Source: a virus | Lineage: Duplodnaviria; Heunggongvirae; Uroviricota; Caudoviricetes | Length of the DNA: 64,000 bases | IMG/VR virus record: IMGVR_UViG_3300032213_000610 | Location: 1-64,000 of that record | Reading direction: 5' to 3' (one strand) | Shown here: one piece after another, positions 20,464 to 48,426 of the stretch | Layout: every line of letters starts with the position of its first letter | How positions within the stretch are numbered: position 1 is the first letter of the stretch | Notes under the pieces: model-generated | Databases searched by the model: none | The model's input: only the letters and a program-made list of their open reading frames with translations | Told to the model about the DNA's origin: nothing | Position numbers and translations under genes: made by a program

Positions 20464-20994
20464 ATGTTAGATAGGCTGATTGACGTTGTGTTACAATTTG
20501 GCTCAGACGTACTCCCTGGTATTATTATTAGGGATTACGAGGAGGCTGTACTTCTAAGATTTGGTAAATTTAAAAAGGTGTTAAAACCTGGATTCCATCC
20601 AAAGATACCATTTGTAGATGAAGTGATTGAGCAACATGTCGTTGTGACAACATTAAGTCTTCCAGCACAATCTTTGTATACTAGTGATAGACAGAACATT
20701 GTTGTCAAGGGTGTAATCAAATACAAGATATCAGATGTTAAAACATTCCTGTTAGAAGTGTTTGATGCCCAAGATGCAATAGCTGACATGTCACAAAGTG
20801 TCATAAAAAATGTAATCATGTCTATGTCCCTGGAAGAATGTACGGATGCGGAACTTGATAACACATTAACCAAGAAGGTAAGGGTTGAAGCAAGGAAGTG
20901 GGGTGTTGAAATTCAACAAGTTACGCTCACTGATCTAGCTCCAATTAAGAGTTATAGGCTAATAAATGACACAATTACAAACAATCTTGATTAG
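20464..20994 (+). CDS. SPFH / band-7 (stomatin/prohibitin-like) domain protein
   Basis: EEAVLLRFGKFKKVLKPGFHPKIPFVDEV…VTTLSL…NIVVKGVIKYKI matches the SPFH-domain pattern. Confidence 0.6.
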   Translation: MLDRLIDVVLQFGSDVLPGIIIRDYEEAVLLRFGKFKKVLKPGFHPKIPFVDEVIEQHVVVTTLSLPAQSLYTSDRQNIVVKGVIKYKISDVKTFLLEVFDAQDAIADMSQSVIKNVIMSMSLEECTDAELDNTLTKKVRVEARKWGVEIQQVTLTDLAPIKSYRLINDTITNNLD

Positions 20995-30727: not shown

Positions 30728-31978
30728 ATGTCTGAAAACCAGTCATTGCTACAACAGCTAGAAGAGATTCTACATTGGAAAAAGAGTAAACAATTCTATG
30801 CTGATAAGCTTGGAATTACAGAGTTTGAGGTGGATGAGTTATTAAAAGAATTAAGAAATCAAGAGAAGAGTGAGGAAGATGCTGAGGTTGGAAATTACAT
30901 TGCTGAGCTAGAGAATGTAATAGTTAAGTTTACAGAGGACATCAGTAAGGGTGTTGGTGAGGTGGTAGCTAACTTTAGCGAAGAAGTTAAGAGTTTAGAC
31001 GAACTAATTGAGAAGTGTCACATAGACACAGATAAATGGGAAATAACTAAATATGTACAGAACTTCTGGGGGAATGGTGGAAATCCCCATTGGCAGGTTA
31101 AAGCCTGGCTAGCAAAGAAGTCTGCAGAGCAAGTTTTTCAAGATAGCTTTGTGGACTTTTTAGCTTCATATCAGCCTGTTAGTCAGGAAGTTATGAGTCC
31201 TAAGTTTGACCCAGAGAGGCCAAATGGTATGTTAGTTATCAACAAACAAGACTCTCATTTGAACAAATGGGATGTAGATGGTAATAACAATATAGTAGAT
31301 AGACTAGCTAAGATTATGTATAAGGTGGAAGTGATTGCTGCACAAGCTCAACTTTCAAACAACCTAGAAGAAATCACATACATTATTGGCTCAGATGAGT
31401 TTAATAGTGAGTACACCAATGCAACTACAAAAGGAACCCCTCAACAGAATACACATACATATCAAACTTCATTTGAGTATATATGTGACCATGAGGTGTT
31501 AATGATTACAATGTTATTACAATATGCTAAACATGTTAATGTAGTGTATGTAGCTGGTAATCACGATGAGTTTGTAGGATGGCATATGGTTAATTGGTTA
31601 CAAACGTATTTTAGAAATACAAACAGACTTACAATTGACAGCTCTCCTAAGTATAGAAAGTATGTAAGTTATGGCAATTCAGCATTAATGTTCAATCATG
31701 GAGATGCAATTAAGCCAGCTAAACTTGCAGGACTGTTCCCAATAGAATATAGAGACCAATGGTCATTCCACCATAACTTCTATATATTCACAGGAGATAA
31801 GCACCATGAAGTGAGTCATGATTTTAACGGTATTAAATTTTACCAAATTCCAGCTTTCTCAAATGCTAAGAGCCTTTGGGATGATAAGAATGGTCACACA
31901 ATGTCTAAAGCTGAGGTGACAGCATTCTTAATCGATCAAGCTGAGGGAATGACAAATATATTCAAACAGTATTTATAA
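30728..31978 (+). CDS. metallophosphoesterase-domain protein with N-terminal coiled-coil (416 aa)
   Basis: QDSHL, IGSDEF, VVYVAGNHDEF, MFNHGD, FTGDKHHE in canonical phosphoesterase order. First gene after the terminator. Confidence 0.5.
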   Translation: MSENQSLLQQLEEILHWKKSKQFYADKLGITEFEVDELLKELRNQEKSEEDAEVGNYIAELENVIVKFTEDISKGVGEVVANFSEEVKSLDELIEKCHIDTDKWEITKYVQNFWGNGGNPHWQVKAWLAKKSAEQVFQDSFVDFLASYQPVSQEVMSPKFDPERPNGMLVINKQDSHLNKWDVDGNNNIVDRLAKIMYKVEVIAAQAQLSNNLEEITYIIGSDEFNSEYTNATTKGTPQQNTHTYQTSFEYICDHEVLMITMLLQYAKHVNVVYVAGNHDEFVGWHMVNWLQTYFRNTNRLTIDSSPKYRKYVSYGNSALMFNHGDAIKPAKLAGLFPIEYRDQWSFHHNFYIFTGDKHHEVSHDFNGIKFYQIPAFSNAKSLWDDKNGHTMSKAEVTAFLIDQAEGMTNIFKQYL

Positions 31979-32706
31979 TGGCAACTTTAAGGAAATTAGT
32001 TTCAGATGTACGTGCAATGCACAAATTGTTATCAACAGATAACCTCATCACTGATAGAGTGGTGGCATCTGAGATTAAGAACAACACACTTTTATTAGTA
32101 AAACGTGAAACAAATCTCAGAAAGCTTTGGGCTACTGATACTTTGTTTACTACCATTCCTTGTTTGGAATTGGTAGAAGTTCCTATTTCTGAATGTTGTG
32201 ATTATGTGGATCCTTGTACTGTAGCTAGAACAAAATTTAAACTTCCTCGTATATGCGAGGGTAATTATCAATACCTCATTCAAGGTGTTTATTCAATAAA
32301 CGCTATGAGTGGGCAAGGCAAAAAGTTAAAAGAGGTTACTATCAATAGATATTTAAATCTCTTAAAACTTCCAATCGTCAAGAATGAGCAATACTACTGG
32401 ATTGCTAATGGAGGATATTTATATGTAAATAATCCTTTATTACAAGCTGTTAGAATTTCTGCTTTCTTTGAAGAAGATGTTCCTAATGAGATCATGTTTG
32501 CTGAATGCTGTTGCAGTGATAATGTTAATCTAGAAGACTATTGTAAAAACCCTCTAGATAAAGAATATGGCTGCCCTGGTTATTTAGAAAAGCAAGTGCT
32601 AGAACTGACATCTCAAAAGCTGTTATCGACCTATTTCAGATTGAAAACAGATCAAACATCAGATGGGGTGGATGGTCAAGCACCAAACACAACCAATGCA
32701 AACTAA
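31978..32706 (+). CDS. hypothetical structural protein (242 aa)
   Basis: ORF coupled (ATAATG) to the upstream gene. Cys-rich centre. Confidence 0.4.
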   Translation: MATLRKLVSDVRAMHKLLSTDNLITDRVVASEIKNNTLLLVKRETNLRKLWATDTLFTTIPCLELVEVPISECCDYVDPCTVARTKFKLPRICEGNYQYLIQGVYSINAMSGQGKKLKEVTINRYLNLLKLPIVKNEQYYWIANGGYLYVNNPLLQAVRISAFFEEDVPNEIMFAECCCSDNVNLEDYCKNPLDKEYGCPGYLEKQVLELTSQKLLSTYFRLKTDQTSDGVDGQAPNTTNAN

Positions 32707-33187: not shown

Positions 33188-34111
33188 ATGTCATATTACT
33201 ACAAGTATAACTTCATCTCCCCTGAGCCTGTCTATTCGACTGTGAAAGAAGAGTTTAAAAGCTACTTCGATACAGGTGCTGTAGATGATTTGTTATTCCC
33301 TACATACCTGGATAAATGTCTTAGGAAACTAGGAAGGTCTTCTTATGTTATTAGCGAACAGCTTCTATATATTGAGGACTTTGAAGCTAGGCTTCCTGAT
33401 AACTTCTTTGCTGTAAGAGAAGCTTGGTTATGTACATCAATCCCTGGCTATCCTTATCAAACAGCTAATTCATTCTATTCTCAAGCTGCTTCTCAAACAA
33501 CAATACAGGTTAGTCCTGTTATTTCTGGAGGAGCTCCTTGTACCAATCTAGAATGTACAACAGGTTGTCCTACGTGCATGCCTGAGCTTATTCAAGCTGT
33601 ATATAAGACCAATCAACAAGTGGCTGTAGAATATCATAGACAATACTTATTGAAACCAGGTAACATCTCTGTACAAGCTCATTGTACATTAGACTGTGCA
33701 AACTTTGGTAGCTCTGCTGCAGATTCATTTGACATTAGAGATAACAAGTTTGTAACCAACTTTAGAAATGGCGTAGTTCATTTGATATTCTATTCTACAG
33801 CTTATGATGGAATAGGTAATCAATTGATTCCAGATAACTATCGTGTTAGAGAGTTTGTTGAGGCTTTCATCAAATACAAAATGATGGAAACACTTACTAA
33901 CCAAACTAACGATGAGACATACAATCAGCTAGAGAGGAAGATGATGAACTATAAACAGATGGCTGATGAAGCATTTATCATGGCTGATATTGAGGTGAAG
34001 AAGCAAGATGCTTGGGCTAAGCAAAGAAGAATCATCCAAGACTTAAACAGATTTAACAGATACGAACTACCAAATAGAAGTTACAGATATGGCTGGAGAA
34101 GAAACAACTAA
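33188..34111 (+). CDS. hypothetical structural protein (307 aa)
   Basis: ORF. Overlaps the next gene by 23 nt. Confidence 0.45.
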   Translation: MSYYYKYNFISPEPVYSTVKEEFKSYFDTGAVDDLLFPTYLDKCLRKLGRSSYVISEQLLYIEDFEARLPDNFFAVREAWLCTSIPGYPYQTANSFYSQAASQTTIQVSPVISGGAPCTNLECTTGCPTCMPELIQAVYKTNQQVAVEYHRQYLLKPGNISVQAHCTLDCANFGSSAADSFDIRDNKFVTNFRNGVVHLIFYSTAYDGIGNQLIPDNYRVREFVEAFIKYKMMETLTNQTNDETYNQLERKMMNYKQMADEAFIMADIEVKKQDAWAKQRRIIQDLNRFNRYELPNRSYRYGWRRNN

Positions 34112-37100
34112 TATTAAGCAGGAGTACAACAGTGCTATATCTGGCTTAAACATGGATCAATCTGTAAATCAGGTTGAGAAGGGTAAGCTTACGTATGCAT
34201 TGAATGCTAGTGTTGAGAACTTTGACTCAGATTCTGTAAACTATCAGAATGAGCCAGGTAATGAGTTATGTCTAGACTTTCCTACAGGGTATCATTTAAT
34301 AGGAACTCATTTCATTGTTGAACAAAATAAACATGTATTCTTTCTAACTAATCCTGAAACAGAAGATAGTCAGATTGGATATATGGATAACAATGATTGT
34401 GTATATCGTATATACGTAAGTGCTAAATGTTTAGGCTTTGATGTAAAATATCCTATCCTTAAAGCTGTTCATAAGATTACCAATTGCACTACAGAAGTGT
34501 ATTGGACAGATGGTCTTAATCCTAGAAGATACATAGACCTAAATAATATTCCATATAAGTTAGCTCCTAATGCTGATTTATGTGATCCTATTTATACCAA
34601 TGAACTTGATTGTAATCAATTAAACGTTCAACCTAATTTTAACATTCCTTCATTAGAAGTAACTGATGTTACAACTGGTGGTGACTTAACTTCTGGCACA
34701 TATCAGTTTGCTATTCAGTATTGTGATGCAAGTGGTAATGCTTATTCATCTTTCTACTCTGTTACCAACCCTACACCTATTGCTAATACCAATGTCACTA
34801 CACCAGAGTTCTCTTATCAAGTTGGTAAGTCTATTGTAGTTAGTGTTGGTAATCTAGATACCACTGGATATTTCCAGTATTTTAATCTTGCTGTAATTAA
34901 GACAATAAATGCAATAGCTTCTGTTGAGCTTGTTGGTACATATTTTATTGAAGATGACACTAGAACCATAACTTATACAGGACAGAACGTTACACAGATT
35001 CGTCTTGCTATTGCTGATATATTTGAGAAATATCCATATTACGAGATAGCTCAAGACTTAACCACTGCCCAAGATGTTCTTATCTGGGATAACCTAACCG
35101 TTATTGATAGAATTAACTATCAATCAATTGCTAGTCAAATTGATCTTAAATGGGAAACTTATAGAATCCCTAGTACAGAAACCTATGCTGATGAACTAAA
35201 CGCTACAAATTTTAGAGGTTATCTAAGAGATGAAGTGTATGCATTTGAGATAGTGTTCTTGCTTAAGAACGGTAAGCAAACAGATGGTTTCCATATTCCT
35301 GGTAGAATGATTAGTGCTAATGAAGGTTCTCAACCAGATGTACCAAGCAGTAATCCTGACTTTATTGGAGAGGGTGCAAGTGCACCATATTGGAAGATTT
35401 ACAACACAGGTTCTGTAACAGGGTTTTCTCCTGGATATTCACCAAGTCAATCTTATAAAGGACCTTACCAATATGGTGAGTTTGCTTATTGGGAATCAAC
35501 AGACACCTATCCATGTAACATAGATTTATGGGGTGATCTTGCTAGTCAACCTATCAGACACCATAAGTTTCCTGATGTTCTTGTAAGTCCTATATACGAA
35601 AGTCCTACATACACATTGGGAGGAGCATTTGCACCAGTGATGCAAAATGATGCTGTATTCCCAATGGGTGTACAGATTGATGTTCAACAAGTTGCATACT
35701 TAGTGTATGCATCTAATCTTACACAGGCACAGAAAGAAAGCGTTGCAGGATTTAAGATTGTAAGAGGGGACAGAAGTACAAATAGATCTATTGTAGGTAA
35801 AGGTATTCTTAGAAACGTAGGTAAGTATAAGAGAGAAGAAACAGAATTCTACTTCCCTAACTATCCATATAACGATCTTAATAAGGATGAATTCCTTCTT
35901 GATAATAATAATGGTTATTGTGATGAATGTATCACGTACAAACTTGCTACCACAGGATCTACTATTGTAGAATATACAGACTGTTTTTCAAATACACTAG
36001 TAACTGAAACACTTGTTTCATCTCCAACTAATATATTTTCTCTAAGTACACCTATCATTACTTCTGGTACAGCAGTAGTTACTATAGTTCCTTATGATAC
36101 TTATAGACTAACTAGTAATAGCACTACAACATTTGAATCTAAAGATCCACTAACAGGTAACACTGTTGTCACTATAGTTAATGTTGGAGCTGTTCAATTT
36201 GTTAATTCTACAACTGTTCCAACAATCATTGGTGGTACATCAGATGCTACTATCACTAAACTATCAACTAGAAGATCATTAAAATATCCTAATAAACTAG
36301 ATGCATTTGCTACAGATGAATCTAAATACAGAATGGTATTTAACTCACCTGAAACATCTTTCGGACAACCTTTCTTAGGAACTGTCATGAAACTTGAGAA
36401 CGTTATGTTTGGTGGTGGTATAGCTCATTTTGTAGAGGTTAAGAGGAATGCTATGTATAAGCTTCTCACAGCAGAGGCTCAACGTGATGCTCTTAAATCT
36501 AGTGAGGACATTGGTCATATTACTGTAGACTTTAATGCATCAGCTATGTTTGCTGCATATCAAGCCTATCTGACCATCTACATAAATGGAATCACTAGAA
36601 GAAACTATGGGTATTCATTTAACTCAATAGCTAGTTATGATTACAGTGGAGCTATTGATAACAATCTAGGTATCAAGCAAAGACAATTAGACAATGCTCA
36701 ATATGTATTCCCTGGAGTGCAGTCTGTAAGTGACTTACATGATTTCAACAACTTCAATAGAGAATCATCTATATATGTAAAGACAGTTGATACTAGAGAT
36801 GGTTCATCAGTGATACCTTTACCATTCCCTAATCAAACTCCTAGTTTATTAGTTGGTGGTGTAAGTGGTATCTCTGATACATCAAGATTTACTATATCAC
36901 AAAAGAACAACTGTTCTGTACCTAATAAGAATGAAGCAATTAATGTAGTTTCTTATTATGGATCATTAAAGAACATCTTTATCAATCAGTGGGGTCAAAT
37001 ATATTCTTACGATACAATTGATACAGGTTTCCAAGAAAGCATTGACATTAACAGTTTAATGTTCTCTACACCTAACTCAGCTACTATATTTGGTGGAGAT

Positions 37101-39122
37101 ACATTTATTAGCAGATTTGCATTCAAGACTAAGCTTCCATTCTTTATTGATAATAGAGTGAATTCTCCTGATGATAGTGATGTATTCTATGATGAGATTG
37201 GTAATGTGGCTTATCCACAATACTGGCACTCAGCTAGATCTGTATTAGAAGACTATTCTTTAAATAATGGTGCTGGTCCAGTGCTAAAGAATATGATTTC
37301 TTATAAGGCACACAATTTTGATTGTCCTAACAACCAAAACCCTGCACCTAACTCAGCAACAAATCCCCCTATAGTAAATCCTAACAGAACATTCTACGAT
37401 GGTAAGATGTATATGTTTGCTTATGGTATTCCTTCTTTCTATTGTGAAAGTTCATATAATGTGGATTTACGTCAAGCATTCAATAATCTAGAAGGTGACT
37501 TCTTCCCACACGTGAGCTCAGGTATTCCTGATAACTGGTTACAAGAGTCTGTGGTTCCTATTGTATTTGATAATACATATTATTATAATGTAACATTCTC
37601 AAAGCAAAACAGAGAGAATGTATTTACTCACTTGCCTGCAGATTGGACTGAACAACTTTGTTACACTAAGTATCCGTTTAGAGCTGTTTATTCAGATCCT
37701 CAGGATGCATTTGCTGACAATAGAGTGAATAGCTGGTTAAGCTATGGTGCTACAGCATTCTTTGATTTCCCTCAAAACTTTGGTGGTCTTGTATCACTAG
37801 ATGGTATTCAGAACAAGGCTATATTGGCTAGGTTTGAGAACAAGTCATTGTTATACAATACAATGCTTACAGTTCAAACTAGTAATCCACAAGCTGCTTA
37901 TCTAGGTAATGACACATTATTTAAGAGTGCTCCCCCAATTGACTTTGCTGAAACAGACCTTGGATATGTAGGAAGTCAGAATAAGTTCTTATTAAAGATT
38001 CCTAATGGACAGATTACAGTAGATGCTAAGAGAGGACAAGTGTTTTTAATTGAAGGTTTACAAGCTACTGACTTATCTGCATTTGGTTCAGGACTTAATA
38101 AGTTCTTTACAGACCATTTAGCATTTGAACTATTACGTTACTATCCTGAGGCAAACACGGATAACCACTATAACGGTATTGGATTACATGGAGTGTTTGA
38201 TAGTAAGTATGATAGGGTGATTATATCTAAGCTTGACTATATTCCTAACAGTAAAGATATTAAATACGATGTTGCTACTAGAGAGTTTTATATAGAAAGA
38301 ACATTAGGTGAGAGTATAATAAGAACGGTGGTAAGTGTTTATGATTCAGAATACTTCTGTAACAAGTCATGGACTCTTTCATTTAGTATGAATACTAAGA
38401 GTTGGATTAGCTTCCATAGCTATATTCCTAACTTCTACATAGCAGAGAATAACTTCTTCTATTCTGGATTGAATGGTGGATGTGACCTAGAAGCTATTAC
38501 TTTCTCTGAGATTCCTTGTACCACTACCACAACCACATCAACAACAAAAGATTGTAGAATAATAGGCACAGCAATTGATCTATGTATAGACTGTACACTG
38601 ATAGGAACAGCTTGTGTAGATTGTACAATAATTGGTACGGCTTGTGTAGATTGTACAATAGTTGGAACAGCTGTAGAACAATGTCCAACTACTACCACTA
38701 CAACATCTAGTAGTACAAGTACAACAACTACCAGTACAAGTACCACTACCACTACCACCACTATATGTACTAGTAGACCTGAAGGATTATCAGATTGGCA
38801 ATACTTCTTTACATATACACCTACAGAAGGAGCTGAACCTATTAACTACACTGCAACATTAGAAAGTGCTTGCGATGCTTGTAATTGGTTAAATAATAAT
38901 ACTGCATGGGGTGAAGGAGCTTGGACTGGTCAAAGTTTTACATTTAGTGTCGGAAGTTATGTTTATCTTGGAACATATACTAATTGTGATGGATTATATG
39001 ATGGATTTTATATAACAAACCACGCAACTTGTGAAATAACACAAATAGTTGATGGGTATATTGTAGCTATTACAAATTGTACTATAACTCCAACTACCAC
39101 AACAACAACTATTGCTCCGTAA
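34089..39122 (+). CDS. giant tail fibre / host-recognition protein (1677 aa) with poly-Thr linkers and Cys-rich tandem repeat
   Basis: Long beta-rich sequence. 10-aa Cys repeat CIDCTLIGTA / CVDCTIIGTA / CVDCTIVGTA flanked by TTTTTSTT and SSSTSTTTTSTSTTTTTTT. Ends TPTTTTTTIAP. Confidence 0.55.
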   Translation: MAGEETTNIKQEYNSAISGLNMDQSVNQVEKGKLTYALNASVENFDSDSVNYQNEPGNELCLDFPTGYHLIGTHFIVEQNKHVFFLTNPETEDSQIGYMDNNDCVYRIYVSAKCLGFDVKYPILKAVHKITNCTTEVYWTDGLNPRRYIDLNNIPYKLAPNADLCDPIYTNELDCNQLNVQPNFNIPSLEVTDVTTGGDLTSGTYQFAIQYCDASGNAYSSFYSVTNPTPIANTNVTTPEFSYQVGKSIVVSVGNLDTTGYFQYFNLAVIKTINAIASVELVGTYFIEDDTRTITYTGQNVTQIRLAIADIFEKYPYYEIAQDLTTAQDVLIWDNLTVIDRINYQSIASQIDLKWETYRIPSTETYADELNATNFRGYLRDEVYAFEIVFLLKNGKQTDGFHIPGRMISANEGSQPDVPSSNPDFIGEGASAPYWKIYNTGSVTGFSPGYSPSQSYKGPYQYGEFAYWESTDTYPCNIDLWGDLASQPIRHHKFPDVLVSPIYESPTYTLGGAFAPVMQNDAVFPMGVQIDVQQVAYLVYASNLTQAQKESVAGFKIVRGDRSTNRSIVGKGILRNVGKYKREETEFYFPNYPYNDLNKDEFLLDNNNGYCDECITYKLATTGSTIVEYTDCFSNTLVTETLVSSPTNIFSLSTPIITSGTAVVTIVPYDTYRLTSNSTTTFESKDPLTGNTVVTIVNVGAVQFVNSTTVPTIIGGTSDATITKLSTRRSLKYPNKLDAFATDESKYRMVFNSPETSFGQPFLGTVMKLENVMFGGGIAHFVEVKRNAMYKLLTAEAQRDALKSSEDIGHITVDFNASAMFAAYQAYLTIYINGITRRNYGYSFNSIASYDYSGAIDNNLGIKQRQLDNAQYVFPGVQSVSDLHDFNNFNRESSIYVKTVDTRDGSSVIPLPFPNQTPSLLVGGVSGISDTSRFTISQKNNCSVPNKNEAINVVSYYGSLKNIFINQWGQIYSYDTIDTGFQESIDINSLMFSTPNSATIFGGDTFISRFAFKTKLPFFIDNRVNSPDDSDVFYDEIGNVAYPQYWHSARSVLEDYSLNNGAGPVLKNMISYKAHNFDCPNNQNPAPNSATNPPIVNPNRTFYDGKMYMFAYGIPSFYCESSYNVDLRQAFNNLEGDFFPHVSSGIPDNWLQESVVPIVFDNTYYYNVTFSKQNRENVFTHLPADWTEQLCYTKYPFRAVYSDPQDAFADNRVNSWLSYGATAFFDFPQNFGGLVSLDGIQNKAILARFENKSLLYNTMLTVQTSNPQAAYLGNDTLFKSAPPIDFAETDLGYVGSQNKFLLKIPNGQITVDAKRGQVFLIEGLQATDLSAFGSGLNKFFTDHLAFELLRYYPEANTDNHYNGIGLHGVFDSKYDRVIISKLDYIPNSKDIKYDVATREFYIERTLGESIIRTVVSVYDSEYFCNKSWTLSFSMNTKSWISFHSYIPNFYIAENNFFYSGLNGGCDLEAITFSEIPCTTTTTTSTTKDCRIIGTAIDLCIDCTLIGTACVDCTIIGTACVDCTIVGTAVEQCPTTTTTTSSSTSTTTTSTSTTTTTTTICTSRPEGLSDWQYFFTYTPTEGAEPINYTATLESACDACNWLNNNTAWGEGAWTGQSFTFSVGSYVYLGTYTNCDGLYDGFYITNHATCEITQIVDGYIVAITNCTITPTTTTTTIAP
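38545..38700 (+). repeat. tandem 30-nt coding repeat (3-4 copies) encoding CxDCTxxGTA units
   Basis: …tgtatagactgtacactgataggaacagct tgtgtagattgtacaataattggtacggct tgtgtagattgtacaatagttggaacagct…. Confidence 0.7.
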
Positions 39123-39133
39123 TTAATTAAGAT

Positions 39134-40000
39134 ATGTCTAAAGTAATAACAATAAGATTAACAAAGGCTGGCATTAGAACTGGACCGTTTAAGATTTCTG
39201 ATAACTACGGAAATGTCTTAGGAACTAATATTCCTAAGAGCCAAGTTATTTCTGGAATCACCTATTCGGTTAGTGATGATGTCACTGTTATTATTATTGA
39301 ATCTATAGGGAAATGTAAAACAAGATTACAAATGCCTATAGAGGAACTATGTATTGCAGATGTGGCAGCTATCAAGTTTGTCCCTACAGATACAGCATCT
39401 TTATGGAGACACTTAACTAACACAACAATTTACAATATATTCTACGGAAACATAGAACCTTATATTATAGAATATCCATTTGCCTATCAGTATTATGATG
39501 AGATCTTACAGAATGTAAAAGATTACACAAAGGCATATAGATACCTCCCTATACCAGATGGTGTGTTCAATGATAACGCTAAGATAGAAACAAACACAGT
39601 TTATTTCAACAAAGCTGTCCTATACAATGGACAACAGTCTTCTGGTGTACTAGAACTAGTTCCTAAACCAATTAACAACTTAAAGGAATACTTGAAGTAT
39701 CCTATGTATAACGCTGATAGTAAGACGATTATGTTTACTAAATCAGATAATTTTTATCAATATAATACATTTTGGTCATTAGTTAAAGATAAATCCTTAC
39801 CTTTGTTTGTAACAGGTTGTGACTCATTGTCTATAGATAAGGTTGTAAATCAACCAAATATGGATTATGGAAAGAGATCATTTAAGAAAGAACCTCTACG
39901 TGCGAAAGATTTAAAGGTGAGACACGTCCTAGATAATAGATCAGATGCCCATTTGATAAGTCAATTCATTATCACACCATCTCAAATCTCTTACAAATAA
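39134..40000 (+). CDS. tail-associated protein (288 aa)
   Basis: ORF coupled (TAATG) to the next gene. Confidence 0.45.
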   Translation: MSKVITIRLTKAGIRTGPFKISDNYGNVLGTNIPKSQVISGITYSVSDDVTVIIIESIGKCKTRLQMPIEELCIADVAAIKFVPTDTASLWRHLTNTTIYNIFYGNIEPYIIEYPFAYQYYDEILQNVKDYTKAYRYLPIPDGVFNDNAKIETNTVYFNKAVLYNGQQSSGVLELVPKPINNLKEYLKYPMYNADSKTIMFTKSDNFYQYNTFWSLVKDKSLPLFVTGCDSLSIDKVVNQPNMDYGKRSFKKEPLRAKDLKVRHVLDNRSDAHLISQFIITPSQISYK

Positions 40001-43000
40001 TGGCTAACAACATTAACTGTACATGTGGACATTCTTGGAGCAAGGCAAGCTCTAGCAAGAAAGACATGTATGTATGTCATATATGTGGAAAGGATAACAC
40101 CATGGAAGACGGTGGATGGCTAAGTAAGTTTGAGCAAGGAGGAATGACCTTAGAACAAAAGGGTGATAACTATGGTACAAAACCTAATCCTAATGAGGTG
40201 GATGTGTCTGTAAGTCCTGATTTTGTAGGACTTTCTTATGATACAACAGGTAGAAACTATTCTCCTGCATGGGGTGGGCAATTTCAGAATGGTGGTAATT
40301 TATGGAATACAAATAAGACAGCATGGGTAGATAGTATTCATAATGCTAGAAAAGGTGATTTAAACTTTGTACAAAGAATGTTTGACCAACGTGCAGGATC
40401 AATACAAATACCTGGACAACCTGGTACATCTACACATTACATGGAATCAGGAGATGGAAAAGCATATCCTACTGTAGTACAAATGCCAAACGGAAAACTT
40501 CAGTACTTAAATCAAAATGATAAAGATGCTGCTTGGAACTATGCTAATAAAACAGGACAATTTATAAAGTTTCCTAATGATGAACAAGCTGAATGGTATG
40601 CAAATAATGGATATAAGAAAGGAACAAATGTATTAAAGAAAGCAATGGGTGGTAGCTTACCAGGTGCTGTAGGATTCACGTACGCACGTACAATCAATCC
40701 TGCTCCTAGTAATGGTAAGTATGCTAAGAAGACAAAAGCTTCTGCACAGAATGGTAAGGAGATGAAGTTTTACCAAGAAGGCTTGGATTTCAAACCTAAC
40801 AGTATTGCTCAGGATGGTGCTATTGTAGACCCAATGGGACAATGGGCACACCCAGGAGAAGTAACTATCATACCAGCTACAGACATAACAATGGAAGGGG
40901 TAGATTATCCCGTACTAGGAATATCTGATACAGGGGATACACAGATGATGTACCCTGGAGAAGACTATGATTTTGATGGTGAATATGTTACAGAGTATCC
41001 AATAATGAAAGAGGGTGGTTGGTTAAGTAAGTATCAATCTGGAGGTCCTTTATCTAGATCTAATCTAGAAACAATGGCAGCTCTTGAAAAGGACATTAAG
41101 AATCAGAAAGCTAGAAATGCTCAAGAAACTGTTTCTCAATACACTCCAAAACCTGGAGACCAACAGAGAATGAATGCAGCTAAAGATGCATATAGAGCAG
41201 AGGAAGCAAAACCTTTAAATAGAGCAGCTAGTTCAAGAGTGGCAGCTAAAGCTATGGAGAACATAGTAGAACCTATGTTAGTAATGGAAGGTGTGGCATC
41301 TGGCCTTAGTGGTGTACGTAGTCTAATGACTAAACCAAAATCTATTTCTCCTTCTTATGTTTCTAATCCTTATGAGAAGTCAGGATTCAATCCACTTGGT
41401 TTAGTAGATGATATAGCACCGAGAATAGATCCTATAAAAGCAATGGGTGTAGAGATGGATATAATGGACATGAGTCCTTTAAATCTTATACCTGGATACG
41501 GCAGAAAACTATCTGGTAAAAACCAGACGTTTAGAAAGTTTGGTAACTCTCTAGATGATGTTATACAAAGACAGGCATTAAGTCCTGCTGGTGGTTCTAA
41601 ATTCAGAATGGGCAGAGATCAGATAGTTAGTGAAGGAAACTGGGCAGCTAGAAATCAACCATCTGAAAATTATCCAGGTGTGTTTGAAGCCACCTTTGAT
41701 ATGAACAACCCTGATGCAAACTTATCTACACTTCAGGTACCTGATAGAAATGGTGTACTTATGGTTGATAAGGCAGGAAGAAGACTTTCTGAAATACCAC
41801 TTACAGAACCAGGTATGTCTTTTAACAGAAGGCTTCCTTTTTCTACAAGATATGTTCCTATTGACAAACAGAAGCTGATGAATAACGAGTTTCAGTTTGC
41901 TACCATGGCTCCACATTTACAAAGTCTTGCTGAGAAGTATACACTTGGACTAGGAGCTGCTAGTGTTTTAGGTAAAGAAACAAGAGATACTTATAACAAG
42001 TATACTATAGATCCAGTTATTGACATGGCTAAGAAGCTTGAAATTGAAAAACTTGGACTGAACGTTGACAAACGCAAAGATGGTGGCTGGTTAAGTAAAT
42101 TTGATACAGCTCAAAAAGGTAAGACTATTCCTAAACCTGAGCTTACTTCATCTAATATACCATATACACCAATAACCTTATCTACAAATGTTAAAGCTGG
42201 AACAAAAAAGCCAACCGTTACACTTTCATCTCAAGAGGAAATATTAGATGAACAACAGCAAAAGGAGAATGAAAATAAACCCATTGTTGAAAAGAAGTAT
42301 GAAAATATAGAGACTGTTAAACAAGATAATAGAACAGATTGGCAAAAAGGATTTGCTCAAAAACAGTTAGCAAATCTTATAGTACAAGAAGCTCAAGGAA
42401 CTTCTCCTTTTGCTCAAACATTAAGTTCTTTTACACCAACAGGATATAATCCAGAGGCTGGTAAGATAGCCGCTGAAAACATAGGACAAATGACTCCTAT
42501 GATGGGAACCACTAGATTATTTAACACTGTAAGAGATCCTGAAAATAATCCTTATGGTATTGGTCAAGGGAATGGATTTCTAGCAAATACATTAGGTACA
42601 TTAGGATTACTTGGAGATATTTTTGATGTAGGTGCTGTAAATGCCCCTGCTATAAAATCTGCAGGTAAATACCTTACCGAACAAACACCTTTAAAAAATA
42701 CTTATAAGTTAAATCCTTTTGCTTTCAAACCTACAGAAGAAATGATGTATAGAGGACTTGGAGTAGAGGGAATGGAAGATGCTTTTCAGTCTGGTGTATT
42801 TAGAGCTAAGCAAGATGTAGAACCTTCTATGGTAGGTAACTTTGATCTGTCTAAACGATTTGACAAAGCTTACTTTAGTCCAAAGTTTGATGTAGCAGAT
42901 CAATATGGACAAGGATATATTGCTGAGGTACCAAGAACAGCTTCTGATTGGGGAAAAAGATATAGTAAAAAAGAATGGAGTCAAATAGCTCAAAGAGACA

Positions 43001-44568
43001 TACCTATAACTGAAGGTAAGATATTACAGAAAGATTGGTTAAGAGGGTATAAAGAAGTTCCTCAACCAAGTGGTGTAGCAACCCCTAATTTAGGATCAGC
43101 AATTGAGCAATCAACTCCGTTAAAAAACATATCTGAAATAGAAGCAACATCTCCTAATGTAAAATCATCTTGGGAACCACAAGAACTTCCAGGATTACAC
43201 TTATCCTCTACAATGGAAGGAGGTCCAATTAGTAAGATAGTAGAACCTAAAACAGGACTTGTAAATGTAGAACAAGCGTTAGGTATTATAGCAAAAGAAT
43301 CAGGTGGTGCTAACAAAGCAAGTATTATAAAAAAGGCATTAGGAAAAGAACTTCCTAAGAAGATGGATTATAATGATTTTAGAAAAATAGTGCAGGATCA
43401 ACTTATTCCTTTAGATAAACAACTTGTTAATCATTCTTCTAACTATGGATTAGGTAGAGTTGGTTATCCTGGTCCAAAAAGAAGTAGTTTTGAAATGGCT
43501 ATTGAAAATAATAAAAAAGCAATTGCAGATTTAGAACAACAAATAACTTTAAAAAAATCATTAAACAGTCAAGATGATCTTGTTTTAAAAGATATTAAAC
43601 GATTAGAAGATGAACTGGCTGAAAGTAATAATCAAATAAATATTTCATTAAATGAGTTAAATAGATTACCAATAGAAAATCAAACACTTGTATTATCTAA
43701 TGTAGATAAATTTGGTAGAGGTTCTTCTGCTCATGGTAATCCTATGGAAACTCTTGGTCATGTTCATTTTATAAGAGACGCTGAATCACCAGATGTTCTT
43801 ACAATAACACAAATGCAATCTGATGCTTTTCAAGGCACACATAGATCAATGCCTAAAAGTTTAGAACATGCAGAGTTTTCTTTACAAAGTTTGGAAAATA
43901 TAGTGACTCAGCGTAATAGTATTCTTGAAAGTTTAAAAAAACAAAAAGAAGAACTACTTATAAATAAAGCAGATAAAGAAAGTATTAATCGGGTGAGTGA
44001 GCAAATTGATAATTTTACAAGACTTATAAAAGACCAAACTGGTTTTAATAAACTTAATAAAGTAGAGGTAGAAAACTTTGCACAGAAGTCATTATTAGAT
44101 AAAAATCATCAAGAAAGATATTTACAAGAGCTAGTGGATTATGCTGGTAAACGAGGTGATATAAATAAGATAAGAGTACCTACATCAGAAACTGCAGCAA
44201 AGGTCCAAGGTTATGAGGGTATTGAAGCTGAAGAAATTATAAAAAAATATAATGAGGCAATGGCAGCAAATCCAAACTACACTAAAGAAATTGCTGAAAA
44301 ATCGAATGAGAATGAAATAAAATTAATTAATGATGTTTTAAATGGAAAGTTAAAAGGTAAGATATATGAACCAGCTGCTACAACTATTCTTAAAAAATAT
44401 ACAGAACAACCTAAAGTTATTAAAAAATTATTTGGTGTAGAACCTAAGATGGTAACAGATAGTAAAGGTAACACCTGGTATGAGTTTGATATACCTAATA
44501 AGTTCAAAGGTGGTAAAGGGGAAATTAAAGCATTTAAAGATGGTGGTTGGTTAACCAAATATAAATAA
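40000..44568 (+). CDS. giant internal/ejected-type virion protein (1522 aa) with N-terminal zinc ribbon and four DGGWLSK[FY] motifs
   Basis: N-terminus CTCGHSW…CHICGKD. Motifs EDGGWLSKFEQGG, KEGGWLSKYQSGG, KDGGWLSKFDTAQ, KDGGWLTKYK at the C-terminus. Role inferred from size and position only. Confidence 0.45.
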   Translation: MANNINCTCGHSWSKASSSKKDMYVCHICGKDNTMEDGGWLSKFEQGGMTLEQKGDNYGTKPNPNEVDVSVSPDFVGLSYDTTGRNYSPAWGGQFQNGGNLWNTNKTAWVDSIHNARKGDLNFVQRMFDQRAGSIQIPGQPGTSTHYMESGDGKAYPTVVQMPNGKLQYLNQNDKDAAWNYANKTGQFIKFPNDEQAEWYANNGYKKGTNVLKKAMGGSLPGAVGFTYARTINPAPSNGKYAKKTKASAQNGKEMKFYQEGLDFKPNSIAQDGAIVDPMGQWAHPGEVTIIPATDITMEGVDYPVLGISDTGDTQMMYPGEDYDFDGEYVTEYPIMKEGGWLSKYQSGGPLSRSNLETMAALEKDIKNQKARNAQETVSQYTPKPGDQQRMNAAKDAYRAEEAKPLNRAASSRVAAKAMENIVEPMLVMEGVASGLSGVRSLMTKPKSISPSYVSNPYEKSGFNPLGLVDDIAPRIDPIKAMGVEMDIMDMSPLNLIPGYGRKLSGKNQTFRKFGNSLDDVIQRQALSPAGGSKFRMGRDQIVSEGNWAARNQPSENYPGVFEATFDMNNPDANLSTLQVPDRNGVLMVDKAGRRLSEIPLTEPGMSFNRRLPFSTRYVPIDKQKLMNNEFQFATMAPHLQSLAEKYTLGLGAASVLGKETRDTYNKYTIDPVIDMAKKLEIEKLGLNVDKRKDGGWLSKFDTAQKGKTIPKPELTSSNIPYTPITLSTNVKAGTKKPTVTLSSQEEILDEQQQKENENKPIVEKKYENIETVKQDNRTDWQKGFAQKQLANLIVQEAQGTSPFAQTLSSFTPTGYNPEAGKIAAENIGQMTPMMGTTRLFNTVRDPENNPYGIGQGNGFLANTLGTLGLLGDIFDVGAVNAPAIKSAGKYLTEQTPLKNTYKLNPFAFKPTEEMMYRGLGVEGMEDAFQSGVFRAKQDVEPSMVGNFDLSKRFDKAYFSPKFDVADQYGQGYIAEVPRTASDWGKRYSKKEWSQIAQRDIPITEGKILQKDWLRGYKEVPQPSGVATPNLGSAIEQSTPLKNISEIEATSPNVKSSWEPQELPGLHLSSTMEGGPISKIVEPKTGLVNVEQALGIIAKESGGANKASIIKKALGKELPKKMDYNDFRKIVQDQLIPLDKQLVNHSSNYGLGRVGYPGPKRSSFEMAIENNKKAIADLEQQITLKKSLNSQDDLVLKDIKRLEDELAESNNQINISLNELNRLPIENQTLVLSNVDKFGRGSSAHGNPMETLGHVHFIRDAESPDVLTITQMQSDAFQGTHRSMPKSLEHAEFSLQSLENIVTQRNSILESLKKQKEELLINKADKESINRVSEQIDNFTRLIKDQTGFNKLNKVEVENFAQKSLLDKNHQERYLQELVDYAGKRGDINKIRVPTSETAAKVQGYEGIEAEEIIKKYNEAMAANPNYTKEIAEKSNENEIKLINDVLNGKLKGKIYEPAATTILKKYTEQPKVIKKLFGVEPKMVTDSKGNTWYEFDIPNKFKGGKGEIKAFKDGGWLTKYK

Positions 44569-44586
44569 AACACACAAACGTTCAAT

Positions 44587-47500
44587 ATGAAAGATCAAAT
44601 CTTAAAGATCGCAAAAGTAAAGTCTGAAAAGGAATTCTATAAGAAGTATCCTACAGAAGAAGCATTCATGAAAGCTCATGGTAAAGCATTTAAGAAAGCT
44701 GCTATGGGTAAGACTATGGTTGCTAAACAGTTAACACAACTAACTGACTTTGCTAATCCTCCACAGGCTAATGTTGGTGCATACATAGGTGGTGACACTT
44801 ACCAAAATGCTGCTTTTAAATATGGTGACTTTGCTGATGAAGCAGATGCTAATGTTACAGGTAATGCTGCTCCAATGAGAGTGCAGAACGTTCAACCTCC
44901 TATGGGCGGTGCAAAACAAAACCCTTATGCTTTTAATGCAGGTACTACAGGAATGAGAAACATAGATTGGGAGAATGTAGGTGCTGATATACTTCCACAA
45001 CTAATGCAAATGCAAGGAGGTGGTATTATTTCTGCACAAGGAGGAGTAAGAATTCCTGCTTTTGCATCAACTATACCTACATCAACACGTCCTACTAAAG
45101 CACCTGCTGCTAACATGACCAACATTGGAAACATGTTAAGTAACCCAGCGTTTCAACAAGGTAAGATTAATCAAGCTAAAGGTTTAAAGATGTCTCCGTC
45201 TATGAAACCAACATCGTTAAGTAGCAAGATTGGTTCTGGTGTAATAAACAATGCTGGCAATATCCTACAGGGTATTAACATGCTTAGTGATGAGAGAAGA
45301 CAAAAGAAAATGGCAAAACAATCAGTTGCAGTAACTGATGTAGTGGGTAAGGCTGCTGGTACAAGACCTGAAATAAGTAAACGTAGATACGTTACTCAAT
45401 ATGATACTGCTATTCAACCAGGAGAATTAGGTAACCCTTATGGTGAAGGAACAACTCCTTTAGTGATGCAAGATGGTGGTGGTATTGGAGGTAATCCAAC
45501 TGAGATTCAAAATACATTTGATCCAAATACAATATATACAAACCTTGAATACGAACCATTGAATGATCGTAATATTAAACAATACAATAAAGGTGGTAAG
45601 TTAAAGAAAGCTCAAGTTGGTGCTGGTATTTCTGGTCAACTAGGTGGTGGTTTAGGTAGTGTTATTGGTGGTGGTAGATTTAGTCAAGCTGGTGGAGCTG
45701 GTAAGATTGGTTCTACACTTGGTGGTATTGCAGGAAGTGTTATCCCTGGTGTAGGTACAGTTATTGGGTCTGCAGTTGGTGGATTAATTGGTGGTGCTAT
45801 TGGTGGTAAGAATGCAAGAGAAACTGCAGATCTTGAAGAACAAGCACAGAACAACATCATGGGCTCAGCATTACAACAAGGTGCTCGATCAATCCAATCT
45901 AACTATAGTGGATTTATGCAAGATGGAGGATACATTGAATATCCACAAGCTCAAGCTGGTACAATTGCAGATAGATCTGTAGGTCAGTTCTGTGGTATTC
46001 AACGTGGTATCAATAAAGAAAATGCAAGAATGAACGCAGAGGCTGCTAAACAAATGAAAGGATTAGAAAGACAAGCTACTAGAGATGAGAAACAAGCTGC
46101 AAAAGAGGCAGCTGCTGCACTAGCTGGTCAGACAGAACTTACACATGAATTTGATGATACTCCTTTAGACAAAAAGGTGGTAAAACAATTGAATGCTATT
46201 AGAGATCAGTACTTGCAAACTAATCCTAATGTATTTGTAGCAGATGATACATCTGGATATACTCCTCAACAGAAGTATGCTCTAGCAATTAAATTGATGG
46301 ATAAAGGAAGTCGTCACACTTTTGGTCAGGCATTTCAAAATCAGTTTGGTGTTCCTTCTAAAGGAATAGGTAGTTTAGAACGTGTTCATTCAGAATTAGT
46401 ACCTAAGATGGGTGGATGGGAAGGTGTAAAAAACTGGTTATTCAATCCTATACCACTTAAGTATTATAACATGAAAGAAGATGGTGGATGGGTAAGTAAT
46501 GATTGGCAGCCACAGGTGATTGCTAGCTTTGGTGAACATAAAATGAAAGACTTATTAAAACCTCCTCATGATGCACCAATGTTAAGAGCTGGTGGTCATT
46601 TAAAAGAATACACTGCTCCTAGTGAAAGAGCTATGGAAACATATGATATGGGTGGTGAACTTGAAACACATTGGGGTGGATATATGGAACCTATTTCTCA
46701 AAACCCTTACCTACCAGACGGTGGGGTTACAGTGATGCCTAGAGGACAATCTCATTCAGAGAGTGATGGCAAAGGTAACACAGGTATTGGTATTACATTT
46801 GGTGATAATCCTGTAGAAGTAGAAAGAGGTGAACCTATGGTTAAACTTAAAGATGGTGGTACAGGGGAAGACAATCTAGTGGTGTTTGGTAACATGAAGA
46901 TACCTAACTACGGTTTAGAAGATTTCGATAAGAAAGCTAAGGGTAAGAAGTTTAAAACTTATGCAGCTGATTTAACTGAAACAGAAGCTAAACAAAATAA
47001 GCTAATAAATAAATCAACTGAGAAACTAGATGATCTAGACATGCTTACAGAATTTGACAAACTAGAGTTAAACTCATTACAAGCAAATATTATGGGTGGT
47101 AATATGAAACTAAAAGATATTGCTGACAAGAAACAAAAACTTGGTGACTTACAACAGTCTATACATGCCACTGCTCCTGAGTTTGGATATGAGGATGTAG
47201 ACAAGTTTAATAAAGATGTTATGAAAGGAAAGGTTAAAGCTAAGAAAGGAAAGGTTAATTCTGATATGCCAGAAGCTCAATATGGTTTCAATATAAACAA
47301 AATTGTTCCTCAAGTTAATGTGCCTGGTAAAACACCTCTACCTGATCCAAATGCATCATACCCAGCAAATAGTGCTGTACAAAAATTAATAAAAAGTATT
47401 GTACCTCAACAACCAGTTGCTAACTTCCCGTTAAGACCAGGGTTTATGTACAATCCTCCTGCTTATTTATATCAAAACGTTCCAGCTGTTAATTACAATG

Positions 47501-48426
47501 TTGGTGCAGGGATTCCTACAGTGACAGCACTTAATGCTCCCACTGCTTTAAATATGTATAATCCTGGTTCTCCTGGTTTCCAACCAACTGGAAGTAGATT
47601 ACAAGCTCCTGCAAAAGGACCAGGTGGTAGAGGTATATTTGGTACTATTGGTGATTTCATAAATGAGAATCTTGAAGACAATGGTTCTACATTAGTTAAT
47701 CAATTACTACCTTATTTAAGACCTACAAATCAGACTCCTTTAGATCCTATACAATTGGCTGGAGAGATGTATGCTTTGGCTAACAATCAGGTGGAACCAG
47801 TGTATGCTCAAACTCTACAACCTAGATTAGGCTCACCAATTGATATATCATTACAGAGTGCACTCAATGCTAATCAGGCAGATTACAATGCTTTGCTTAA
47901 GAATGTAGGATATAACCCTGCTGCTCAGTCTTTGTTAGCTGCTCAGAAGTATGAGGCTAATTCTGAGATTAAAGGAAAAGAAGCTCAAATGAACAAGGAA
48001 GAAAGAGCAAGAGTGTTTAATGAAAACAGACAATTGTTGAATGAATATGACTTTAAGAATGCAGGTATCTTGGATCAACAAATGGTAAGACAATCACAAG
48101 CTAGGTCTAATACTAAAGCTCAAACACAAGAAGCTCTTAACTCTATTGGTAATAAATACCTTCAGAATAAGAGAGAGAATAGAGAGGTGGGCATGAATGA
48201 GAACCTTTACAACTTCAGATATGATAGTAGAGGTAGACTTATTAACATGAATCCTCTAGCTCAATTTGCTATTCCAAACATAGCTAATCAACCACTAGCT
48301 CAACAAACAACAGCAACTGCTAACAAAGACTACATTCCTGTATACGATAAAGATCGCAAGAATATAGTTGAGTATGTTAAGAAGGCAAAGAATGGCAATA
48401 TTGTTAAAGCTATCAAAAATCTATAA
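44587..48426 (+). CDS. giant glycine-zipper virion protein (1279 aa), candidate ejection/pore-forming or tape-measure-like protein
   Basis: Gly-zipper stretch GAGISGQLGGGLGSVIGGGRFSQAGGAGKIGSTLGGIAGSVIPGVGTVIGSAVGGLIGGAIGG. [DE]GG[WY] motifs recur (EDGGWVSNDW, QDGGYIEY, KDGGTGED). Confidence 0.45.
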   Translation: MKDQILKIAKVKSEKEFYKKYPTEEAFMKAHGKAFKKAAMGKTMVAKQLTQLTDFANPPQANVGAYIGGDTYQNAAFKYGDFADEADANVTGNAAPMRVQNVQPPMGGAKQNPYAFNAGTTGMRNIDWENVGADILPQLMQMQGGGIISAQGGVRIPAFASTIPTSTRPTKAPAANMTNIGNMLSNPAFQQGKINQAKGLKMSPSMKPTSLSSKIGSGVINNAGNILQGINMLSDERRQKKMAKQSVAVTDVVGKAAGTRPEISKRRYVTQYDTAIQPGELGNPYGEGTTPLVMQDGGGIGGNPTEIQNTFDPNTIYTNLEYEPLNDRNIKQYNKGGKLKKAQVGAGISGQLGGGLGSVIGGGRFSQAGGAGKIGSTLGGIAGSVIPGVGTVIGSAVGGLIGGAIGGKNARETADLEEQAQNNIMGSALQQGARSIQSNYSGFMQDGGYIEYPQAQAGTIADRSVGQFCGIQRGINKENARMNAEAAKQMKGLERQATRDEKQAAKEAAAALAGQTELTHEFDDTPLDKKVVKQLNAIRDQYLQTNPNVFVADDTSGYTPQQKYALAIKLMDKGSRHTFGQAFQNQFGVPSKGIGSLERVHSELVPKMGGWEGVKNWLFNPIPLKYYNMKEDGGWVSNDWQPQVIASFGEHKMKDLLKPPHDAPMLRAGGHLKEYTAPSERAMETYDMGGELETHWGGYMEPISQNPYLPDGGVTVMPRGQSHSESDGKGNTGIGITFGDNPVEVERGEPMVKLKDGGTGEDNLVVFGNMKIPNYGLEDFDKKAKGKKFKTYAADLTETEAKQNKLINKSTEKLDDLDMLTEFDKLELNSLQANIMGGNMKLKDIADKKQKLGDLQQSIHATAPEFGYEDVDKFNKDVMKGKVKAKKGKVNSDMPEAQYGFNINKIVPQVNVPGKTPLPDPNASYPANSAVQKLIKSIVPQQPVANFPLRPGFMYNPPAYLYQNVPAVNYNVGAGIPTVTALNAPTALNMYNPGSPGFQPTGSRLQAPAKGPGGRGIFGTIGDFINENLEDNGSTLVNQLLPYLRPTNQTPLDPIQLAGEMYALANNQVEPVYAQTLQPRLGSPIDISLQSALNANQADYNALLKNVGYNPAAQSLLAAQKYEANSEIKGKEAQMNKEERARVFNENRQLLNEYDFKNAGILDQQMVRQSQARSNTKAQTQEALNSIGNKYLQNKRENREVGMNENLYNFRYDSRGRLINMNPLAQFAIPNIANQPLAQQTTATANKDYIPVYDKDRKNIVEYVKKAKNGNIVKAIKNL

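Follow-up and report, generated by a model that had tools for sequence, protein, structure and literature searches.

Analysis of a 64,000-nucleotide (nt) stretch of the IMG/VR virus record IMGVR_UViG_3300032213_000610, here called the window, which is part of a crAss-like phage genome, showed that the peptide GGWLxK(Y/F) is the family-defining short linear motif of a large protein encoded within it. The protein is encoded by an open reading frame (ORF) of 1522 amino acids (aa), designated ORF A, and the motif ends its modules and those of its relatives. All modules, the leader and the last one among them, have GG-W-L-x-K-(Y/F) at their end, and the motif coincides with recombination break-points.

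A short linear motif at module ends

ORF A and the elements that it contains were located as follows.

40000..44568 (+): ORF A, 1522 aa, modular and motif-bearing, with the muzzle gene on its 5' side and ORF B, a cargo protein C1 homologue, on its 3' side
40018..40089 (+): zinc-ribbon-like leader, CxC-x16-CxxC, aa 7-30; the first module whenever present in relatives
40111..40131 (+): motif copy 1, GGWLSKF (aa 38-44), with EQGG behind it
40828..41001 (+): family-marking beta domain at aa 277-334 (DPMGQWAHPGE...SDTGD...VTEYP), one per protein
41014..41034 (+): motif copy 2, GGWLSKY, aa 339-345, followed by QSGG, immediately 3' of the beta domain
42082..42102 (+): motif copy 3, GGWLSKF, aa 695-701; the point at which the C-terminal module is joined on in relatives
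44542..44568 (+): motif copy 4, GGWLTKY, followed by K and the stop codon; the C-terminal tag

The context of copy 1 is MEDGGWLSKFEQGG (aa 35-48, nt 40102-40143), that of copy 2 is KEGGWLSKYQSGG (aa 337-349, nt 41008-41046), that of copy 3 is KDGGWLSKFDTAQ (aa 693-705, nt 42076-42114) and that of copy 4 is KDGGWLTKYK plus the stop codon (aa 1513-1522, nt 44536-44565). An example of the 14-residue motif peptide is MKEGGWLSKYQSGG. The four in-frame copies in ORF A had been recorded in the initial annotation of this DNA and are all present, with coordinates that differ by 1-6 nt only. Three of the copies had also been described as evenly spaced, which did not hold, as the gaps measure 301, 356 and 820 aa in ORF A and anything from ~85 to ~1300 aa in relatives.

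A degenerate DNA pattern for GGWLxK[YF] (GGNGGNTGGYTNNNNAARTWY) matched four sites in the 64-kb window, all of them in ORF A. Sequence shuffles gave 0.01 expected matches against the four found, and none of 100 shuffles reached four. The four copies differ at synonymous sites (GGA/GGT/GGC, CTA/TTA and AAG/AAA). The use of different synonymous codons indicates that selection acts on the peptide and not on the DNA.

A total of 1318 homologues of ORF A were detectable in metagenomes, and their coverage of ORF A was mosaic, from 7% to 78%. The motif statistics were taken from the 120 best relatives with the pattern GGW[LV]. Among these, 112 carried GGW[LV] in 1-5 copies each, altogether 271 copies: 47 behind the N-terminal leader (at about residues 38-47), which in relatives is a CxC...CxxC zinc ribbon, 128 at internal positions and 96 at the extreme C-terminus. 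The consensus was [MK][KQE][ND]-G-G-W-L-[DNS]-K-[YF]-x-x-G-G, and positions outside the search pattern were conserved too (K 82%, Y/F 96%). The motif was therefore strongly conserved in homologues rather than absent from them. The C-terminal copies were the strictest (K 96%, Y 98%), and most of them have one residue more (K 70%, N 14%) before the stop codon. The residue after Y was Q/D/E in internal copies and K/N in terminal copies, while position -1 of the C-terminal copies may be P or K, so that D/N is dispensable there. Concerted evolution of the variable motif positions, which would be a sign of one co-evolving partner, was not found (0.390 within and 0.388 between proteins).

The upstream flanks were unrelated in ~70% of the copies, and the other ~30% directly follow the conserved ~60-aa beta domain, within 6 residues. 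The low-similarity context that was initially noted for the copies thus applies to the larger group but not to the copies directly behind the beta domain. Information content exceeded 1.3 bits only at positions -3 to +10 (~14 residues) and was below ~1 bit elsewhere, and most copies are without a long conserved flank. Conservation over fewer than 15 residues, unrelated flanks, predicted disorder and synonymous variation together identify GGWLxK(Y/F) as a short linear motif and not as a domain repeat, in agreement with the initial annotation.

For the analysis of module order, the 120 relatives were cut at the motifs and the resulting segments were clustered (c0, c1 etc.). The same segments were found in differing orders, such as leader-c0-c6-c3 and c3-c6-c0-c9, or c0-c1 and c1-c0. 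From 175 junctions 92 distinct ordered module pairs were obtained, and the zinc-ribbon leader came first in every case. End-points of pairwise alignments fell within 5 aa of a motif in 10.2% of cases compared with 1.3% at random, which is an 8-fold enrichment. Other proteins contain the complete stretch of ORF A from motif to motif (38-345) as an internal cassette, and 29 alignments with relatives begin at ORF A aa 690-699, i.e., around motif copy 3. In some relatives a 10-aa GWLSKYEEGG cassette is inserted in a linker, which changes ISKNG-SVIKDD to ISKNG-GWLSKYEEGG-VIKDD.

The enzyme domains of the relatives, each within a single module, were ART-PolyVal, ADPrib_exo_Tox, His_Phos_1, LysM with Amidase_2, and PG_binding_1. 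Usually one recognisable domain was detected per relative, and none was detected in ORF A itself by Pfam, NCBIfam and PHROGs. An SLT domain also occurs in the family, and the SLT-bearing relative that was scanned (P0046) was without a motif copy. Eight of the 120 best relatives lack the motif, for example P0046, P0071, P0080 and P0095, and three of them have an SLT transglycosylase domain in a precomputed Pfam list. These relatives cover 16-33% of the length of ORF A by BLAST. Since they match part of ORF A, at least that part is more widespread than the tag.

The region aa 1-352, which includes motifs 1 and 2, was covered by two AlphaFold2 runs that used family alignments. The mean predicted local distance difference test (pLDDT) value of the aa 1-352 model was low (45.3), and the model was used only for distinguishing disordered from folded segments. 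Folded segments were predicted at aa 117-203 (pLDDT ~62-83) and, for the beta domain, at aa 277-334 (~82 in the focused run), while residues 1-116, 204-276 and 336-352 had values <50. Motif copies 1 and 2 had values below 50-60 and lie between the small folded segments (117-203 and 277-335), with a weakly predicted short helix at most at motif 2. Because both modelled copies fall in low-pLDDT stretches, two of the four copies are placed by these models in predicted disordered linkers. The beta domain has a conserved polar cluster (D73, S105, D106, T107, D109 and E128 in A1 numbering), and no fold relative of it was detectable.

In sequence scans the motif was largely confined to this family. 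An IMG/VR scan for GGWLxK[YF]xxGG that was blind to gene family gave matches in at least 119 stretches, and nearly all ORFs belonged to the ORF A family. The same was found in a scan for GGWLxKY[KN]-stop, with at least 119 stretches and nearly all from this family. Among the matches listed, 87 ORFs ended in the tag; 81 of these clearly belonged to the family, and of the remaining six at least three showed the beta-domain signature. A second motif-bearing ORF in the same stretch was found in none of 241 viral stretches, nor did modules occur as separate tagged genes in a split arrangement in any of the 241 loci. In 596 Gb of bacterial and archaeal genomes only 54 matches to the pattern were found. 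Of these, 26 were not in frame in any ORF of at least 50 aa, 27 were single copies in unrelated proteins and one was an ORF A family member, located on a 2-kb contig binned with a metagenome-assembled Kapaibacterium genome.

No domain match for ORF A was obtained in Pfam, PHROGs or NCBIfam, a PDB sequence search with ORF A and ORF B gave no meaningful match, and a tblastn search with ORF A against 50,697 deposited phage genomes (INPHARED) gave none. A description of the GGWL tag was not found in Pfam, NCBIfam, PHROGs, PDB sequences, the deposited phage collection or the full-text literature, and a full-text literature search on crassvirus cargo with ADP-ribosyltransferase returned nothing relevant.

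Gene neighbourhood and the C1 homologue ORF B

The window has a G+C content of ~35% and covers 64 kb of a genome of ~105 kb. The strand switches near 13.5 kb; replication genes, including a DNA polymerase at 5257-7251, are on the minus strand. No tRNA genes were found in the window. The plus-strand block starts, in order, with genes for the large terminase, the portal (17876-20461) and the major head protein (22416-23969), then tail and ring proteins (the ring proteins at 31978-32706 and 33188-34111), and the gene order of this virion block was found again on a related 100-kb contig. The features around ORF A are listed below.

15.8 to 51 kb (+): virion-gene block, from terminase through portal, head, tail/ring and muzzle to ORF A/B/C
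34089..40000 (+): muzzle gene, 1677 aa (34089-39122; Pfam crAss_MUZ, E = 2.4e-36), together with a 288-aa ORF
39134-40000 (+): the separate 288-aa ORF, matching positions 1588-1781 of the 1783 in phrog_15100, which form the C-terminal end of the muzzle family
44587..48426 (+): ORF B, 1279 aa, homologue of cargo protein C1 (crAss001 gp45)
45919..45942 (+): QDGGYIEY, left copy of a duplicated FM[QE]DGG[YW] junction in ORF B
45937..46449 (+): insert of ~172 aa, ORF B aa 451-621, missing from shorter homologues such as P0128
46477..46506 (+): EDGGWVSNDW, ORF B-family signature at the right edge of the insert, not a GGWLxKY copy
46642..46983 (+): CARG1-like domain, ORF B aa 686-799, which opens with MGGELETHWGG (hhalign probability 90.6%, E = 1.3e-6)
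46849-46872 (+): KDGGTGED loop inside the CARG1-like domain
downstream of ORF B (+): ORF C, 857 aa
51062-64000 (+): open frame of >4313 aa, which extends past the window end

The stop codon of the 288-aa muzzle-end ORF overlaps the start codon of ORF A (TAATG), and this overlap suggests translational coupling of the two. In crAss001 the muzzle is followed by the genes for cargo C1 (gp45) and C2 (gp46) and then by those for virion RNA-polymerase proteins (PMC10172136). Judged by its position, the ORF of >4313 codons probably encodes a virion RNA polymerase in fused form and would correspond to crAss001 gp47, gp49 and gp50. ORF B, ORF C and the visible part of this giant ORF were without the motif.

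Two further ORFs of the virion block were recorded. A 176-aa ORF just 3' of the portal gene (20464-20994, plus strand) encodes an SPFH/Band 7 (stomatin-like) domain (Pfam PF01145, E = 1.3e-27), which is labelled as 'lipoprotein' in PHROGs and is unexpected in a phage head-gene block. Within the tail/ring-protein block, a 416-aa ORF (30728-31978, plus strand) is a DNA-repair exonuclease homologue (phrog_704, E = 5.9e-46).

The assignment of ORF B was based on a CARG1 profile that was built for hhalign from 150 diverse gp45 relatives in a representative library; a direct search for gp45 homologues gave only sequences of at least 96% identity. The Pfam crAss_CARG1 model (PF25725) itself did not match ORF B, which is therefore a distant member. 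ORF B also has a glycine-rich hydrophobic stretch at aa 345-407. Its insert is flanked by the duplicated junction, which reads GFMQDGG-YIEYP at the left edge and NMKEDGG-WVSNDWQP at the right edge.

The peptides EDGGWVSNDW, QDGGYIEY and KDGGTGED had been reported for ORF B as copies related to those of ORF A, and all three exist. The signature (G/A)FMEDGGWVSNDWQP, which includes EDGGWVSNDW, was present in 80 of 120 ORF B relatives. Because EDGGWVSNDW is a signature of the ORF B family and KDGGTGED is a loop of a folded domain, what the two giant proteins have in common is the Mx[DE]GG(W/Y) junction, while the GGWLxKY tag itself is restricted to ORF A.

The ordered, portal-bound domain of crAss001 gp45 comprises residues 425-552 (PMC10172136). 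This domain opens with AFGGWLNTQGG, which resembles the ORF A tag, and among 150 diverse C1 proteins the same position reads A[FLY]GGxLxTxGGDFSNG, i.e., phi-GG-x-L-x-T-x-GG, where phi is a hydrophobic residue. From the conservation of this element at the C1 domain start it follows that crassvirus cargo proteins reuse a phi-GG-x-L...GG element, of which the ORF A tag appears to be a lineage-specific elaboration. In crAss001 gp45 (NC_049977, 11988-14516) GGWL occurs twice, at aa 155-158 in a predicted transmembrane helix and at aa 427-430 within the first ordered residues of the portal-bound domain. Many of the 150 C1 proteins also have additional phi-GG-x-[LM] elements upstream of the domain start.

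ORF A or its beta domain was also considered as a homologue of gp45 or gp46 and rejected, as no similarity was found and the CARG1 domain is not in ORF A. In the ORF A linker at aa 205-334 (40612-41001), sub-segments open with AMGG-SLPG, AQNG-KEM, AQDG-AIV and MKEGG-WL. The sequence suggests a general punctuation of the form phi-x-[QK]-[ND]-G(G), of which GGWLxKY may be the most elaborate form.

Possible functions of the motif

We tentatively favour a reading, to which we give somewhat less than an even chance, in which GGWLxK(Y/F) is a tag for docking, recognised either by a virion component or by the beta domain of the family itself. ORF A is built as beads on a string, with the zinc-ribbon leader followed by variable, interchangeable modules and with disordered linkers between them, and presumably travels in the virion and enters the host by ejection. 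By means of the GG hinge the WLxKY element, which is short, aromatic and basic and is weakly predicted as a helix, would be offered to a repeated binding site; candidates for this site are the portal, the capsid interior, the tail-barrel rings, the muzzle and the single beta domain of the family. With several tags per chain the binding strengths would add up, and the chain would thereby be incorporated, kept in order and released from the N- to the C-terminus at infection. Because the tag is invariant, it would also double as the crossover point for module exchange between phages.

Docking is consistent with conservation centred on WLxKY behind a GG hinge, with the acceptance of proline at -1 in C-terminal copies with the location of the strictest copy at the extreme C-terminus, where cutting would free nothing useful, and with the lack of a protease among the ORFs scanned and the recorded domains of the homologues. 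A precedent is given by the domain of crAss001 gp45 that is bound to the portal wing, in which AFGGWLNTQGG forms the first ordered residues. Several points weigh against this reading. ORF A is presumed to be virion cargo from its gene position alone. The motif was not found in other ORFs across 30 related loci with 10-kb flanks, and it is therefore not a loading signal common to the nearby virion-protein genes of these loci. The link to gp45 is an identity of four residues, and W is present at this element in only five of the 150 C1 relatives. The AlphaFold2 models gave no confident docking of the adjacent motif onto the beta domain. Modules never occur as separate tagged genes, which indicates a polyprotein logic, since split genes would be expected if one tag sufficed. 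Finally, the seven conserved residues up to Y/F, the weak downstream side and the usually single C-terminal capping residue also fit a cut after Y/F.

Such a cut is the basis of another explanation, possible but in our view doubtful, in which ORF A is a polyprotein processed at each motif by a phage or host protease, in the capsid or after ejection, so that the effector modules are freed. The cut would most plausibly be made just after Y/F in a chymotrypsin-like manner, with G-G-W-L-x-K-Y as P7-P1, or alternatively after GG. The motif lies at junctions between modules with different enzymes, all modules are kept in one gene and never split, and Y/F (96%) follows the other conserved residues with only a weak small/flexible xxGG downstream. 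The C-terminal copy usually has one residue more, and polyubiquitin likewise has a single capping residue after its last repeat. A candidate self-cleaving protease would be the single invariant beta domain with its polar cluster, which is often located right upstream of a motif, but its histidine is not conserved. The protease scan of the window (64 kb of the ~105-kb genome) covered the virion-module ORFs and, on the replication side, the DNA polymerase; neither in the ORFs scanned with Pfam/PHROGs nor among the recorded Pfam domains of 240 listed homologues was a protease found. A further point against cleavage is that the residue after Y is not the same in internal (Q/D/E) and terminal (K/N) copies. 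For polyvalent proteins as a class, it has been proposed that domains are released by autoproteolysis (PMC5512222). The crAss001 structural paper makes no mention of cargo-protein cleavage, and 'cleav', 'proteoly' and 'protease' have 0 occurrences in it (PMC10172136). A combination of docking and cleavage is also conceivable, as in the T4 capsid-targeting sequence. A more far-reaching proposal, plug-and-play effector delivery, in which any domain between two labels on the chain behind the zinc-ribbon leader would be loaded into the crassvirus particle and ejected, and the labels either read by a virion component or cut by the SDTGD beta domain as a novel self-protease that frees the effectors, appears unlikely.

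The remaining explanations are less probable still. After ejection the motif might bind the membrane interface through W/Y/K, or a periplasmic or cytoplasmic protein in the manner of a TolB box, and thereby aid envelope crossing or effector localisation; we rate this role as quite improbable. [DN]GGW and the DGGWVSNDW of ORF B resemble the colicin TolB box DG[ST]GW and the ColE9 epitope DGSGWSSENNPW and, as these do, lie in a glycine-rich disordered context. The relatives do combine periplasm-type modules (LysM with amidase, PG_binding_1) with cytoplasm-type ones (ADP-ribosyltransferase, phosphatase). However, the resemblance extends over four residues and the S/T of the box is missing, the most conserved L, K and Y/F have no counterpart in it, and D/N at -1 is dispensable, with P or K there in C-terminal copies. 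Colicins moreover have a single box near the N-terminus and not one per module plus a C-terminal copy. Still less credible is that the motif is a recombination linker only, offering microhomology for module shuffling with no function at the protein level. The 8-fold enrichment of break-points, the combinatorial module order, the GWLSKYEEGG cassette inserted into a linker and the ~172-aa insert of ORF B between duplicated FMxDGG junctions would all fit this, but the window copies vary at synonymous sites, so that amino acids and not DNA are conserved, the strictest copies are at the C-terminus without a downstream module to exchange, and W, L, K and Y/F are invariant across deep divergence. An element acting at the DNA level, such as a Chi-like site or a repeat, is ruled out by the synonymous differences among copies. 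The view that the motif borders a folded domain repeat, with flanking conservation over a longer stretch, is essentially refuted. It agrees with the ~30% of copies that stand within 6 residues of the beta domain (...VTEYP-MMxx-GGWL); against it, there is one beta domain per protein and 2-5 motif copies, the flanks of the remaining copies are unrelated, and the beta domain is also followed by a degenerate motif or none (PMAQDGENI, PMMKQGGQLTKLDQ). The pLDDT of the motif is low, and ORF A is without a Pfam, NCBIfam or PDB match.

Relation to known systems

ORF A resembles a known kind of protein, the polyvalent or ejection proteins of phages. The databases and literature searched returned no description of the invariant tag at module ends, of an architecture in which a leader and a single beta domain are combined with permuted modules, or of the clade itself. 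Polyvalent proteins are likewise very large and multi-modular, are encoded beside virion genes and were proposed to be delivered together with DNA (Iyer, Burroughs, Anand, de Souza and Aravind, 2017; PMC5512222). The relatives of ORF A share hallmark domains with that class, namely ART-PolyVal, lysozyme or amidase and other enzymes in a mosaic architecture, and the virion/late-gene setting is matched by the position of ORF A between the muzzle gene and the C1 homologue. ORF A itself differs in that it is without a recognisable enzymatic domain and has no metallopeptidase (MPTase) or other peptidase domain. A conserved peptide between modules is not described in the passages of that paper that were searched, and the word 'linker' is absent from the paper (PMC5512222), whereas the ORF A family has an invariant 7-residue tag.

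Like the crassvirus cargo protein C1 (crAss001 gp45; PF25725 crAss_CARG1; PDB 7QOG chain M), ORF A and ORF B are encoded on the 3' side of the muzzle gene. In C1 there is a single copy of the element per protein, at the ordered edge of a folded domain and mostly without W, K and Y, while the ORF A tag is repeated. The C-terminal tag of ORF A is comparable to the T4 capsid-targeting sequence and the C-terminal cargo-loading peptides of encapsulins, which are also short, terminal, modular and in a flexible context. These sequences load otherwise unrelated proteins into an HK97-fold shell. They are single terminal tags on separate proteins, whereas the ORF A family has 2-5 copies per chain, without a further tagged gene detected in the vicinity. 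In T4 the gp21 protease cuts the tag off; among the window ORFs scanned here, no protease was seen.

Polymorphic toxins have demarcation motifs such as VENN in CdiA and PxxxxDPxGL in Rhs, the latter also being a self-cleavage site. As in the ORF A family, a short invariant peptide marks the swap border. Polymorphic toxins, however, consist of one constant region and one variable C-terminal toxin with a downstream immunity gene, while in the ORF A family the modules can follow one another in any order, the protein itself closes with the motif and an immunity gene was not apparent. The junctions of viral polyproteins and polyubiquitin also have a repeated conserved junction peptide, as here, but a cognate protease was not found among the ORFs scanned.

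The cargo of crassviruses amounts to several megadaltons, and it has been resolved in fragments only (Bayfield et al., 2023). The analysis flags a large uncultured crAss-like clade, with >1300 metagenomic proteins and no match among the deposited phage genomes searched. The ORF A family offers a handle on cargo that can be read from sequence, with one gene per phage and many exchangeable enzyme modules that have the same 7-residue ending. Should the motif act as a signal for loading or processing, it would mark out the proteins that accompany the DNA into the host, would account for the fast swapping of anti-host effectors between phages, and would provide an experimental tag to probe or engineer protein ejection. 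If the plug-and-play reading is true, the motif would represent a new cargo-loading or processing code for tailed phages and might open a route to engineered protein delivery by abundant environmental phages.

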